Part shown: positions 1 through 25,955 of the stretch, piece by piece
Numbering within the stretch: position 1 is the stretch's first letter
How the letters are laid out: each line of letters starts with the position of its first letter
NCBI GenBank assembly: GCA_043381765.1
Contig: JBHJMP010000851.1
Coordinates: forward strand, 1 to 35,358
Length of the DNA: 35,358 nucleotides
Reading direction: 5' to 3'
Source of the DNA: Collodictyon triciliatum
Lineage: Eukaryota
The notes under the pieces: generated by a model
The model's database searches: none
Seen by the model: the letters and a program-made list of their open reading frames with translations, nothing else
What the model was told of the DNA's origin: nothing
Translations under genes and position numbers: made by a program

Positions 1-239
1 TTTTTTTTTTTTTTTTGTTTTTTTTTTTTTTTTTTTTTTTATTTTTTTTGGTGTTTTATTTTTTTATTAAAATTTTTTTTTTTTTTTTGGGGGGGGGGGG
101 GAAGAAAATGTATATTTAAAAAAAAAAGACTTTGGTCAACACTGGCTCATCATTCTGATATTTAAGTTTCATACAGAGAGCTCAAGTTAAAACTCAACCA
201 TTACAATGAATAAATAAGTGCACTGTATAGTATTGTTAC

Positions 240-2336
240 CACTCAGAGGCGTGCTAGAACCAGGGAGCACTCTTCCGTTCATCGTTTTCAGGGCGATAAC
301 AGCTTCATTATTTTTGTCGAATGTGGATATTAGTTAAAGAATTGTTGTGATTAATTTGTTGTTGGTGACAGTGTTGTTGTAACGAATGGTGTGTGATATA
401 TGAAGAGAATGAAGACAGAATAGCGACACATTTGAAAAGGATATCTGACAAAGCCGACTTGTTTGCTCTTTCCCGTTTGCTAAGGAGATAATGAGTGTGA
501 TGATTAAAGACAAAAAAAAAAAAAAAACGAATATAATTGAATGCTACAATCATTTTAAAACATAATGTTACTTACAATATCGACCATAACTTTGCACTCT
601 ACGACCTTTCCAAAGCACGAAAACATTTGATAGAGATCCTCTGAGTGAAGGATGAAGAGTCGTGGGTAAACATGCATGAATTAAAGTTTTTAAAAAAAAA
701 ATCAACAGAAGTATGAGAGTGAGGCACCATAGATGGAATGGAATTAATCATCAATAGGTGTTTATATTGCATATTTTCCACTACAGTACCGTCCGACATG
801 GAGCCCGGTAGAGGTTTGATGTACAAATTTGAGGACAAGGAGGCTGCCTGATTCGCAGAGGAGTTTGACAATTTGCAAAGGAGGGTTTTGTTGCCCACTT
901 GAAATCCAGACATCTTTGCGATGGCACGGTAGGATTCGTCGGCAGTGGTATAACGAATAAACCTAAGTGATTGTAGGATCTGTATAAGCGCTAAGAATGA
1001 AAGAAATATAAGGATAGGTAGAGGGGAAAAAAGGGACTTGGCCAGGATTGGTCTTGGATGTACGACCTGTAGCGTAAACAATAGAGATCCCAAATAAGAA
1101 AAAAAATATGTACCCGTATCCCAAGCTCTGCCCAGTCTTGACATCAACCATGACCTTCGCGGAGATGATATCACCAAAAGGTCTAAATAACTCAACCAGT
1201 CTGTCGTCAGTGACGTCGGACGGCAGATACTTTACAAAGACGTTGCATGGGTCCACCTGTGCGGGGTCCTGATTGGGTCCAATGACGCTGGAGAGGATTG
1301 CTGGATCGTGAGTGACCAGAGGCGTTGTGTTTGTGTGAGTCGCACCGCTTTGGTTTCCTGCGAGATTTGCAGCGGCAGCGGCAGCAGCCAAAACAGATGG
1401 GTGAAACATTGTCGCGTTGGACGGCATCGACGGGGAATTTGCCGAAGCGGTAACATGAGTGGAGGACGGAGGTGGAGGCGATGGCGTCGGAGACGGTGTA
1501 GAATTGTGGTGGAGCCCAGCCGAGGCGTGTGTGATCGCATGAAAAGCCTGCAGAGACGACCGGCGTGTGGCTGTGGTTGTGGTTTCGAAAGCACCGAAGG
1601 GGGACGGGAAGTGGGACACCCGAGGCGAGGCGGAGAGGGCAGCCGACGAGATGGGGAAGTTGTTTGCCGAGGGCGAGGCAGACAGCCCGGCCTCCAAAAA
1701 GTCCGAAAGGGAAGGGATGGAGGGGAACGAGTCGAAGCCGAAGCTGTGACTGTGGCTGTGCGTGTGGTCAGGGTCGTGGTCGGACTCGGACTCGCTGAGG
1801 AGGGAGCTTGTGAAGGAGCCTGAGGCAGACACGTAGGAGGCGGATGAGTGCGACGAGAAGTTTGGAGCGGGCTTTGGAGCGGGGTGGGAGAAGAAGGGGA
1901 CGTGGCTGTGGTTGTGGTTGTGGCTGTGCATGTGGCTGTGGCTGTGGCCCATGGATGAGGCGTAGGAGTAGGCCAGGGGCGTGGACGAGACGGAGGATAA
2001 GGACGAGGACGACGGCGTCCCCCACACGTTATTGCCCAGTGATGGGAACAAAGGGATCGGCCCTGCGTCGGCCGCTGCGGAGGCTCTGCGGAGGCCCGAG
2101 TGCGCTGCGCTCTGGGCTGCAGCATTGGCGGCGTTGGTGTATGTGTTGGGATGGGAATTGGGATGCGGGGCGAACGCGGCGATGGGCACGCTCTTGCTGT
2201 TGGGCGGCAGGAAGGCCGGGGCGTCCTCTGTGTCGAGAGACAGGTGTCCCAGCAGGTGCGAGATGGGTGCGCTGCTGCTGCTGTCGTCCGCAAGCAGGTT
2301 CGAGAAGGTGTCTCGGAAGTCGAACATAAACGACAT
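240..2336 (-). CDS. ELAV/Sex-lethal-like RNA-binding protein: long low-complexity N-terminus plus two RRMs; 3' end unresolved near the window edge
   Basis: Exons 2336-1114, 962-790, 640-576, 479-445 and 322-240 join in frame. RRM1 reads NVFVKYLP...TGQSLGYGFIRY...AIAKMSGFQVGNKTL. RRM2 reads NLYIKPLP...DLYQMFSCFGKVVECKVMVDIQTGKSKQVGFVRFDKNNEAVIALKTMNGRVLPGSSTPLS, resembling ELAV RRM1/RRM2. Three introns are GT-AG and one is AT-AC. Confidence 0.88.
323..444 (-). other. U12-type (minor spliceosome) AT-AC intron, 122 nt
   Basis: On the minus strand the 5' end is ATATCCTTTT (444-435), the branch site is TTCTTTAAC (341-333) and the terminal AC is at 324-323. Removing it restores GFVR|FDK in RRM2; the unspliced frame hits TAA. 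Confidence 0.93.
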
Positions 2337-4790: not shown

Positions 4791-9645
<4,855 letters not shown>

Positions 9646-21192: not shown

Positions 21193-24100
21193 TTCCATTT
21201 CTCTACTTTATGCGGCTGCATATTGCGGTATGATGGCCTTCCATATCATTCCTTTTTATCCAGCAACGAACACATCCAAGATGGTGCATCAATAGTGAGA
21301 AACCGACAAGTTTTATTGGATTGGATATCCGAAAATGCTTCAGAATTCAGCTATCTTGGTACGTATTTGCTTTTCTTGTTAGGGCTTAAAACATATATGA
21401 CATTTTGTTTGATACTCGGGTGCTTTGTTTTTAACAGCAATTTAAGAATCCTGTGAGATATCCAGAGATAAATGTGATATTATTATAAGGTACGACTACT
21501 GCAATTATATGGGTTCTGTCTAATTTTGGAGAGCCTGTCTTTATGGTAAGGTCTATTACTGATGATGGGGAGTAAATCTAGGATTATATGTCTGGGTTCC
21601 ATTTTACATAAGGGTACTTTGTTTCATTCTAATAGACCCCGGGTTGGAGCGCATCGAAATTGAATTGTCTTATATTCGAGATAGCAGAAGACTTCTTCGT
21701 TCAATCAAAGTTTTCTTGATTCGTCTATTTTTTTTTGTTTGATTCTCCCCTTATTCCATTCAATTTTTTCGCTTGATAATTTATTACACATGTGCTCTTC
21801 CTGGCGGGCTATATTCTTAACATTATTAACATATAAATAAAATGGCTAAATCAGGTACGAACAGGCAATATCACACTTGGAGAGACTAGCATCTCAAGAG
21901 ATGAGGGAATTCAGTCGAGAGCACGGAATTGTTCTCGATAGGCTTGGTGAGGCGTATTTAAGGCTAAGAAGGTTTTTTTTTTTTGAAAAAATCAATTATT
22001 TCTTTAATCTTCATTGAAAAGCATTTATCACTCTCTTAAAAAAAAAATGAGAGAACACTGTAGCCTTTTTTCTTAAATAAAAATGCGATGAGACCGACAT
22101 TTTTATATAGTTAGATTCGGTCGATAGTGTGATAAATGAAAAAGCTAGAAACTAATTTCACACCAAAACGCAGATTCTCTGAATCAAAAGAGAGTTTCGG
22201 TAGGGCTCGAGATATTTTCCTACAACAAACGACACTGAGTGACACTCAATTAGCATCGACTCTTGAGAAGATTGCATTTATTGAATTTGAAACTGGAGAG
22301 TGCGAATTCCTAGAATAGCTAAAATCAAATATACACTATATATAAATATATCTTGAGTAAATCCTTATTCATTCATTATATTTCAAACCATAGATTTGGG
22401 TCCTGCTATGATGCTTTACTAGATGCTTCAAAAATTCGAGCTCAAACTCACTCCGTCATGTCAAGTTGGAATCTGAAGACTATTTTGAAAATGATTGAAA
22501 TAACGAAAGATAAAGAACATTATGAATCTGTAATTCAACTCTACTCATCGGCTATCAGAACCAGTGTGGAACAAAATCCAACAGAAACATGGACTACGTT
22601 AATCATATGCAGCGACGCAAAATCATTTTGCTGTGAAAGAGGCTTGCATGAACAAGCTCTAGAACTTTGGAGCAAAATACATACACTCTTATGTGAGAAA
22701 CTTGGTTGGACACATGAAAGGTGTCTTAACGTATGCGAATACCTATCTTTTCATTCAGAAAAGTTGGGGACTGTGAAAGAGCCATTTGAATTTTCTTTTG
22801 TCAATTGTTTCCTAAAAGAAAACGGTCGAGGCATTGAAGGTGAAAGTGCAATTGAAAAAAATCAATTAATTGTACGTCTTTTTGATATTGTGTACTCTTC
22901 AAGAAATGATGAGACCAAATCTAGAGCTGCCTCAGAAGCCATTACGTTTCTCAACTTCATGAACGTCTCCTTCCGGAACATGGACTTGTCAAAAATCAGA
23001 GTGCCTCATGCGAATCTAAGGCAATCTGTCATCGATGGTGCAAATTTTCAAGATGCAAACCTGGAGGATGTGATTTTTTGCTTTAGTGTGTTTGGAAATT
23101 GCGATTTCTCAGGGTCAAACATGGAGAGAACACAAGTCTATCACCTAACCGAGGAAATGACCAGCTCGAATTTGATGAATATACCCTCTTGCATAATTAA
23201 GAGGGGCAGCCATCTCGAGAACTTGTGTGCCACAGCCTCCTCGAATGGAGTGGTTAGCATATGGGACTTTCAATCCGGAAATAAGATCAAATCAATGGAG
23301 CAACATGAGCATAGTTTAGTTAGTTTATGCAGCATCCAAAGATTAAATGGAGAAAATACACTGGTGTCTGGCGATGCAGTCGGAAATATTCAGGTATGGG
23401 ACACTGAATCAGGTGCTATCAGTAAGAAAATCTCAGGACATTGCGGAATCATATCATGTCTGTGTGGAATACAAAAATCGGATGGTACATTCCTTTTCGT
23501 ATCTGGTAGCGATGATAGAGCCCTTAAGATATGGGACCTTGACTCTGGAAAAAGTATCAGCACCTTAAATGGACACTCTGCTATGATAGCTGGTGTGTGT
23601 AGTCTGAAAGGAGACGGCGATGATATCTGGATTATATCAAGTAGTGAGAATGGAGAAGTTTTCATATGGAGCTTATTGACAGGAAGTCTTCTTCACTCCA
23701 TGAGATTAAGCTGCAGTGTATACAGAATGCTAAGATTATCTACCAGTACATCAAACGAATACATATCTTTCACCACTGAGAAAGGAGTCACTGGATTTAT
23801 TGATGCAACAAAACGTACTTTCGACTTCGACCCAACCCAAAAGAGATTAGCTTGCAGTGATATGACATGTTCAACCACAAAGGTAAATACTAATTCAATT
23901 AGTGCTGAAGATGCAGCACACAAGGATATGTCTGCTTTGAAGTTGGAAAAAATACCTAAAGGAGGAAACATAAATATTACGAACGTCTCCCATATTTCTG
24001 GTCTCCATAAAGAGATTTTCTTCGTTATGGGAGGGTTCTCGCATGACAAAGACTTTATTGATTACTGCTTTAGTGGAAGAGATAAATATCTATCCATTTT

Positions 24101-25955
24101 TCAGGCAAAAGCACTGACAGAATACATCTTTAAGAAGACCAATACAGTCACATACATCGATGCGGTTTGTGAGCTATTGGGTAAGCTATTGATTTTTGAT
24201 GAGCTAAAGGAGCTAGTCAAACGCAATACAATCGAAGCATTAGTGGTATTGAAGAGTTTTGAAGAGATTACGTATACTGTGTATGTAAGTGATACCCTGG
24301 AAGAAAAGTTCAAACACCCAGAGGCCCTGGTTATTGTGGGCGAGGCCTATGAAAATGGTTGGTGTGTAGCAAAAGATTTAAAGTCCGCGGTAGCATGGTA
24401 TCGTTATGCTGAAGATTTTCAAGGACTCCAACGTCTTGCTCAACAAGGGATTTCTGATGCTTTTGACTCCTTGGTTGAAGCAGGAGAGTTAAAAATTGAG
24501 GTTTATGTTGGTACTATTGTCGAGCGAATCAAATATCCAATTGTTCCAACCATAGTTGGTCAGTGCTGTGAGCACGGGTGGGGCACCCCTAGGAACATTC
24601 CAGACGCCATCATCTGGTATGGGATTGGGAAAAATGTTGAGCATTTAAGGAGACATGTAAAATCGGGCTCAGCTCAAGCTTTTCAGATTATTTGTGAGCT
24701 TGCAAAAGAAGAACATATCTTTACTGACAAACTCGGAGAAACGAGCGACATTGGATGCAAATACCCTGATTTTGCTAGTCTTTTGGCTGAGTGTTATGAA
24801 AATGGATGGAACGTGGAGAAGAACATGAAGCAAAGTATCGAGTGGTTCTGGAAAGCCGGTAATAGTGAGAAACTAAAGGATACAATCCATGTTTCAAAAG
24901 ATGCATTTTCTTTAGTCGAAAAATTCATCAACGATGCCAAGCATCACCCTAAAAAGTGGACGAAAGGGCAACCATTTTCCAGGAGATATTTTCAAACCGC
25001 AAACATTCTGGGCTCGTGCTACGAAACGGGTATTATTGTTAGTAAGCATATACAATTGGCTTGCGAGTTATATGAAAGAGCTGGGAATGTGACTGATTTA
25101 ATTCGTCTTCACGAAAACGGGTATGGCGGTGCATTCACATCTTTGAAGAAACTTGCTGATCTATGGGAGCCCATCATAACAACGGACGATGTGTTTCGTT
25201 TGATTGTTCCGATGTATCCAAAAGCGAGCGAATACGTCGCTTGTTGTTTTGAGACCGGAAAACATGTCCAAAAGAATTTTCAAACTGGTCTTGAGTACTA
25301 TGCCAAGGCAGGGCGGTTTGATATTTTGACGAAGTATATCGAGGAGAAGAATATGGAAGCACGCCTATCTGTTCGCTATCTCTCTGAAATTCGAGAAACT
25401 GTAGTGAAGCCGAAGAAAAAGACAGCAATCAAGGTCTTCCGCTATCCTAATATTGCCGATATGATTGCCGCAACCTTGGAACACTGGATTGACCCTTTCG
25501 ACCTCAACGACGAACCCCTGATACGCTGGTTACGCTCTGTTGAGTGCATCGAAGGGTTCAAGAAGCTTACTCAGATGGGCTCTACCCATGCAATACGATA
25601 CTTGCGTCATTTTGCACTCGATTACAATGGGCGGGATAAAAACAACTTTGAGGTGGAAAAAGACATTCCAGTTTACCCAAAGGCATCCCTTGCTCTGTCT
25701 GAGTGCTGTGAGAACGGCTGGGGCAGCGTTCCGTCCAAGGAGCTTGCTTTGTACTGGAGGATAAAAGGTCTCTCTGGCTGCGATGATGCTTTCTACCAAC
25801 TCCGGAGATTGGCTAAGGAGGGTTCTGCAACTGCTTTGCGTGTCATATGGCGATTCTGCGGGGAAGTTGATCGCGATGCGGCAGAGTATCCTTTTCTTAG
25901 CAACGACAGATACTACCCGATAGCGAAAAGGTTTTATCTCGAGCTGACCAATTAG
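20881..25955 (+). CDS. ~1396-aa mosaic protein: calponin-homology domain, TPR-like helices, pentapeptide repeats, WD40 repeats and Sel1-like repeats; 7 exons
   Basis: Exons 20881-21041, 21264-21358, 21490-21545, 21636-21709, 21855-21971, 22174-22299 and 22394-25955 have compatible phases. CH-like: QQSFFAWVKDQL...NLSIDLEDGFLLLSLVEVV. TPR-like: YEQAISHLE...VLDRLGEAY. Pentapeptide: DLSKIRVPHANLRQSVIDGANFQDANL. WD40: FVSGSDDRALKIWDL. Sel1-like: GEAYENGWCVAKDLKSAVAWY. Confidence 0.85.
21097..21193 (+). repeat. (TATT)n microsatellite in an intron
   Basis: About 24 tandem tetramers. Confidence 0.95.

Follow-up and report, generated by a model that had tools for sequence, protein, structure and literature searches.

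Does the AT-AC intron at 323..444 belong to the minor (U12-type) class, does the genome that carries it encode the machinery to remove it, and what history placed it in an RRM of an ELAV-like gene? The window, that is, the whole stretch of 35,358 nt analysed here, is the complete contig C851 of a 75.4-Mb genome assembly of 14,576 contigs, and the gene lies at one end of it on the minus strand. We consider the best explanation, taken as a whole, very probable: an ELAV-like gene with three RRMs carries a working AT-AC intron of the U12 type, with a history of conversion between intron classes behind it. Beyond the first-pass annotation of this DNA, the analysis contributes the set of snRNAs, the finding that paralogues carry introns of two classes at a single codon, and an estimate of a strong genome-wide AT-AC excess.

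The host gene, its AT-AC intron and the minor snRNAs

The features of the gene are, in the order of transcription:

1114..2336, minus strand: exon 1, encoding a long low-complexity N-terminus and the first half of RRM1 (Pfam RRM_1, E 5.8e-12)
963..1113, minus strand: intron 1, GT-AG, 151 nt, phase 2 (spliced alignment)
790..962, minus strand: exon 2, encoding the remaining RRM1, the linker and the start of RRM2 (94% identity to Diphylleia rotans P0001 over 89% of the query)
641..789, minus strand: intron 2, GT-AG, 149 nt, phase 1 (spliced alignment)
576..640, minus strand: exon 3, RRM2 (spliced alignment)
480..575, minus strand: intron 3, GT-AG, 96 nt, phase 0 (spliced alignment)
445..479, minus strand: exon 4, 35 nt, with its 3' end inside RNP1 of RRM2 (spliced alignment)
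323..444, minus strand: intron 4, U12-type AT-AC by its signals, 122 nt, phase 2, in the Arg codon of RNP1 of RRM2
435..444, minus strand: U12 donor ATATCCTTTT, with the full U12 consensus RTATCCTT, preceded by an exon ending in AG
333..341, minus strand: predicted U12 branch site TTCTTTAAC, one C-to-T change off the consensus TTCCTTRAC
323..325, minus strand: 3' splice site CAC, followed by the exon letters AT
240..322, minus strand: exon 5, remaining RRM2 (spliced alignment and RNA contig)
1..239, minus strand: start of intron 5 with a GT donor, an intron position common to the paralogues; the contig ends inside it

The start of exon 1 agrees with that of D. rotans P0001 and RNA contigs cover parts of 1399-2372; at the other end, a 987-nt RNA contig from one run lies on 306-240 and departs from the genomic sequence at position 239, where the GT donor begins. 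Because the contig ends in intron 5, the RRM3 exons lie outside the window, so that RRM1 and RRM2 are present in the window gene and RRM3 is expected from the D. rotans homologue P0014. The first-pass annotation had called the gene ELAV-like, and as a statement of likeness this stands: TIGR01661 (ELAV/Hu and Sex-lethal) is the best NCBIfam match, the layout of a tandem RRM1-RRM2, a hinge and RRM3 is shared by the D. rotans homologue, and HuD, HuR, HuC and Sxl are among the top solved structures for one family member. The likeness does not extend to the curated family, since the homologues, which were scanned in place of the window protein, stay below the ELAV/HuD cut-off of 279.1 bits (212.4 for D. 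rotans P0014 and 215.6 for Cyanophora P0002), and a low-complexity N-terminus of ~360 residues is a further difference.

The branch A, placed by convention, is predicted at 334, 11 nt from the intron end, and the CAC|AT at the 3' splice site agrees with the CA[G/C]|AU boundary given in passages of PMC10853781. Joining 445 to 322 restores GFVR|F in frame and leaves RRM2 whole, as had been proposed from the first reading; retention of the intron brings a stop ~42 codons in. Four AC ends in the neighbourhood of the branch site were tested, and the frame stays open with the one at 323 alone; a spliced aligner that allowed GT-AG or AT-AC ends, with the D. rotans protein as query, chose exactly this intron. 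The earlier placement of a U12 AT-AC intron in RRM2 is confirmed by its donor, branch site, ends, frame and spliced alignment, and on these signals the intron is almost certainly of the minor (U12-type) class.

Two other ways of removing these letters have to be weighed, namely a U2-type AT-AC intron cut by the major spliceosome and the use of a nearby GT-AG junction, which the first-pass annotation had itself raised. The exon before the donor ends in AG, the major donors are loose (see below), U2-dependent AT-AC introns exist according to the title of a cited work, and the RNA contigs from four of the seven listed runs, none of which lies over 323-444 or exons 2-4, do not cover the junction of 445 with 322. 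These points are opposed by the full U12 donor, a branch site that fits U12, and an intron with no pyrimidine tract and not one AG. The GT-AG alternative fares no better, because in the 50 GT/GC-AG joins computed through exon 4 every in-frame one damages RRM2, by deleting its residues or inserting intron letters, and none restores it whole; none of the five exon-4 skips is in frame. Both routes are highly improbable in our judgement, and we infer that the minor rather than the major spliceosome removes the intron.

A lenient U12 scan of the window, in which we modelled 24 introns, returned six weaker matches and no other convincing U12 intron, in agreement with the earlier description of this intron as the only one of its class there. 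The other RTATCCT sites in the window have no support as introns, and GTATCCTTTT at 25886 falls within an open reading frame. The window also holds a gene for a long-chain acyl-CoA synthetase (4791 to ~9645) with 20 GT-AG introns; 8 of their 20 donors have T or C at position +3, and the major donors of this genome appear to be loose. The last intron of this gene (9463-9594, plus strand) has a minor-like donor, AG then GTATCCCG, but lacks a U12 branch site; it may be a hybrid or the product of a conversion. We also observed a long region with few or no introns inside this intron-dense window (~22400-25955, plus strand), which we take to resemble repeats of the TPR, pentapeptide, WD40 and Sel1 types, and a run of ~716 N in mid-contig (10143-10858).

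The first-pass annotation held that the organism keeps a minor spliceosome and proposed a search for its snRNAs. Rfam searches of the genome for the four minor snRNAs each returned a single full-length match, with U6atac (75.7 bits), U12 (72.1) and U11 (55.3) above the Rfam cut-off and a U4atac candidate below it (47.4 bits against a cut-off of 53, E 1.7e-5). According to pairings that were predicted without a shuffle control, the 5' end of U11 and U6atac of this genome each form a 7-pair duplex with the donor ATATCCTTTT, U12 pairs with the branch site TTCTTTAAC with one base bulged, and the candidate, a probable U4atac, pairs with U6atac at -32.9 kcal/mol. CENATAC (PF14968), the one minor-specific protein family searched, is present (E 6.7e-20). 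The U11, U12 and U6atac genes and CENATAC support the claim that the genome encodes a minor spliceosome. Its retention is not surprising in itself, because this is the ancestral state; less expected are the AT-AC excess and the split of intron classes among paralogues.

The arginine codon in relatives and paralogues

A search with exon 2 matched 12 proteins among 29 candidates, of which the best was from Diphylleia rotans (94% identity), and the closest named relatives beyond Diphylleia were Cyanophora and Pharyngomonas proteins. A glutamate dehydrogenase (GDH) that matches the genome is 88% identical to one of D. rotans, which makes the organism, a freshwater flagellate, a relative of that species. 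The closest named homologues are thus Diphylleia proteins (Collodictyonidae, CRuMs) in both genes with matches; a sterol-oxidase-like exon used as a third query had no homologue at E 1e-15. CRuMs is the sister group of Amorphea. In D. rotans, the transcript-derived isoform P0014 is spliced at the Arg codon and continues to RRM3, and a second transcript-derived isoform, P0001, has R-Y-P at the same codon and then a stop, which reads as a retained RTATCC donor would. This donor is seen as protein alone, in which AT and GT are indistinguishable, and its +8 letter is C. A distant homologue, P0004, on a 612-nt contig that is apparently genomic DNA, reads through the RRM2 codon, as judged from the protein, and has apparent breaks where introns 1, 2 and 5 would fall, implying that the RRM2 intron is not universal in the family.

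The two D. rotans isoforms could be taken to mean that the intron is a regulated switch, in which removal by the minor spliceosome is slow and the form that keeps the intron, with RRM2 broken and no RRM3, limits the amount of full-length protein. The stop brought by retention in C851 as well, and the fact that the AT-AC intron is kept in two paralogues, would fit such a role. However, the GDH isoforms P0033 and P0040 in the same D. rotans data set run into ordinary introns. Since minor introns are thus not the only ones retained in that data set, retention at the RRM2 codon is weak evidence of regulation, and we regard the switch as fairly unlikely.

A search of the genome with one member of the family gave 23 matches, and we modelled the five loci that best fit the subfamily in RRM1-RRM2, with C2265 left out. 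In all five, a phase-2 intron interrupts this Arg codon, a position that, in the comparison with relatives called for by the first-pass annotation, the D. rotans isoforms share. C851 and C435 have it as an AT-AC intron that bears U12 signals; in C902, C13412 and C4553 it is GT-AG, lacks U12 signals and is hence major-looking. Our tree unites C851, C435 and D. rotans P0014 in a single clade (100/100) and leaves the three major-type genes unplaced, two of them on long branches; in a quicker tree, a branch with a support of 79 has all three on one side, and a clade that takes in all six is not rejected (p-AU 0.22). The trees neither rooted the paralogues nor fixed the direction of the class change, and since the three major-type paralogues lie on one side of a branch, a single change is enough in either direction. 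A search of metagenome contigs with a back-translated RNP1-plus-donor pattern found 50 loci, none in an RRM gene, which says little on other lineages.

A stepwise path from AT-AC through GT-AG to major introns was reportedly described by Burge and colleagues in 1998. In the mechanism that we propose, U11 would bind the donor and U12 the branch site with the branch A bulged, U6atac would take the place of U11, and the cut at AC would restore RRM2. The RRM2 intron position would be old and originally minor. The Arg codon constrains the letters before the donor to AG or CG, so that a stable intron at this site should be either minor AT-AC or major GT-AG, and these are the only states seen in the five paralogues, with no GT-AG minor intermediate. 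According to passages of PMC10853781, AG before GT-AG minor donors is absent in human and makes such a site major, and the major spliceosome has difficulty in recognising AT-AC introns. A copy that mutated to GT-AG would be captured by the major spliceosome and an AT-AC copy would escape, a process that would yield two AT-AC and three major paralogues. The same drain, aided by loose major donors, may have led to the genome-wide AT-AC excess described below. We hold this conversion from minor to major at the Arg codon to be moderately likely.

The opposite direction would make the position first a major GT-AG intron that turned into an AT-AC minor one, after duplication of the ELAV-like gene, on the branch that led to the D. 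rotans gene, C851 and C435. On this reading, the AT-AC excess would be a lineage-specific gain of minor introns made from major ones, and such gains, with loss of GT-AG minor introns, would have raised the AT-AC share above the 77% of Blastocystis. The genes with the minor intron do form one clade, three of the five paralogues are of the major type, and a major origin is inferred for 15-20% of human minor introns in the part of PMC11347168 that bears on this. On the other hand, the position of the three major-type paralogues on one side of a branch is explained by one change either way, the gain requires changes in the donor, in the branch site and at both termini, and in the searched text of PMC10639083 conversion is assumed to run almost solely from minor to major. 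Together with the intron phases given below, these points make a gain distinctly unlikely in our view.

AT-AC and GT-AG minor introns across the genome

With a strict AT-AC pattern we obtained 61 matches (51 donors), compared with 30 in the reversed control; the GT-AG version of the pattern gave 15 matches (12 donors), compared with 34. With a symmetric pattern, in which both starts and both ends were open, there were 61 matches against 29 in the reversed control, and their donors, counted from all matches except one (C11450), comprised 44 AT-AC, 8 AT-AG, 6 GT-AG and 2 GT-AC (Fisher p 0.0013); if the mixed ends (8 AT-AG, 2 GT-AC) are taken as chance, ~37 AT-AC stand against 4 GT-AG. The union of the patterns holds 78 AT-AC and 17 GT-AG donors, or 95 distinct strict matches in 75 Mb, chance included. 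By hand, we accepted 33 AT-AC and 5 GT-AG introns, judged by Pfam and known protein motifs and including three near-duplicate pairs, which corresponds to 87% AT-AC (95% interval 72-96%). We estimate the AT-AC share at ~85-90% of strict minor matches, a figure in which drifted GT-AG minor introns would go uncounted, as the strict patterns miss drifted donors or signals, distant branch sites and introns longer than ~280 nt; the intron of C435 is one that they overlook, on account of its branch site. We think it likely that AT-AC introns make up more than three quarters of the minor introns of the genome, whatever the cause.

Pfam searches with 106 flanking peptides, most of them without a match, gave positions that are continuous across the AT-AC introns of two dynein genes and one G-alpha gene and across the GT-AG minor intron of the splicing factor gene Prp18 (L063, C5711:4149-4326, plus strand). 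For the GDH gene at L140, a 489-residue protein on a 1747-nt contig, which we read as a spliced transcript, is identical to the exons where aligned and is joined across the AT-AC intron. Many of the host genes here, such as GDH, dynein and G-alpha, are not known as minor-intron genes, a point in favour of the gain of new AT-AC introns. The phases of the hand-checked AT-AC introns speak against that gain: phase 0 occurs in 9 of the 33, a better fit to old introns than to recent ones, as the proportion is near the minor average of 22% and below the 49% of Blastocystis, both as given in passages of PMC10639083. In the same set, G precedes the donor in 11 of the 33 AT-AC introns and in none of the 5 GT-AG introns, in keeping with the AG-driven switch of our preferred minor-to-major conversion.

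Enrichment of donor 9-mers over reversed controls (2372 vs 1056 and 1250 vs 945) was rejected as a measure, because Markov expectations from 414 kb are 1781-2546 and 670-1092 and because repeats inflate the counts, with 12 of the first 100 AT sites in one tandem array. A lenient check without the strict branch site found a branch site with a matching end at 3 of 63 GT and 3 of 35 AT donor 9-mers, and with the wrong end at 2 GT and 3 AT, in a sample taken in listing order that has little power on the ratio; the upper limit that it sets for GT-AG minor introns of this donor type is ~13% of 1250 sites. With at most these 3 of 35 and 3 of 63 sampled donors qualifying, the earlier view that there has been no mass expansion of minor introns holds.

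Several further observations were made among the matches. A dispersed repeat family holds GTATCCTTT (L223, L224, L228, L237, L243, L259, L273, L277 and L013) and accounts for ~9 of the 63 sampled GT sites. Some AT-AC introns occur as near-identical pairs on separate contigs (L031/L140, L047/L148, L033/L155 and L182/L211), which may be uncollapsed alleles or recent duplicates; L047 (C1436) and L148 (C6522) are Rab1-like copies with an AT-AC minor intron just 5' of WDTAG, and another Rab, L060 (C3546), has a GT-AG U12-type intron just before WDTAG. One GT-AC match (L206, C4819:4299-4393, minus strand) has the full U12 donor and the branch site, is flanked by open frames on either side, and may be a genuine non-canonical minor intron instead of a chance match.

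Comparison with known minor introns

Our search, which most subscription journals lay outside, found no paper on minor splicing in CRuMs among those listed, the Diphylleia spliceosome papers that it found being concerned with organellar introns, and a listing by title gave none on a minor intron in an ELAV-type RRM. CRuMs is not named in the searched text of PMC10639083, PMC9887622, PMC11039992 and PMC9120149, whose species tables and figures may hold CRuMs protein profiles, and it is not among the six supergroups of the survey in PMC11347168 as described in the part searched. Intron 323..444 is therefore of a known class, in a lineage missing from the searched portions of the two surveys checked. 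The result extends minor splicing to CRuMs and fits its origin before the last eukaryotic common ancestor, for which reason it fills a gap more than it surprises. It also has a practical side, as gene finders limited to GT-AG introns will break dozens of conserved genes in this genome.

The intron resembles the canonical U12 AT-AC introns of animals and plants in its RTATCCTT donor, a branch site within 9-14 nt of the end, its AT-AC termini, the CAC|AT boundary, its phase 2, its place as a single minor intron among the major introns of a gene, and the four minor snRNAs of the genome (U4atac being probable); it differs in its CRuMs host and in the one C-to-T change in its branch site. The genome as a whole stands apart from human, where ~26% of minor introns are AT-AC according to passages of PMC10639083, compared with ~85-90% of strict matches here. 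Blastocystis sp. subtype 1 is closer in that AT-AC introns dominate there too (77%, in the same passages), but its introns are ~40 nt long with 49% in phase 0, whereas those found here span ~85-280 nt, a range set in part by the pattern, with 9 of 33 in phase 0. Physarum polycephalum is likewise a protist with a working minor spliceosome, and differs in that 12% of its introns are minor, against 95 strict matches in 75 Mb and no mass expansion here. The nearest parallel to the Arg codon comes from Pelomyxa schiedti and Helobdella robusta, in which, in the relevant text of PMC10639083, one position is minor in one gene and major in another, and loose major donors are proposed as the cause of conversion in Helobdella. 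Unlike in those cases, the split seen here is among paralogues of one genome. With both classes at one codon in five paralogues and AT-AC introns apparently dominant, how introns switch class, and in which direction, becomes testable within a single lineage.
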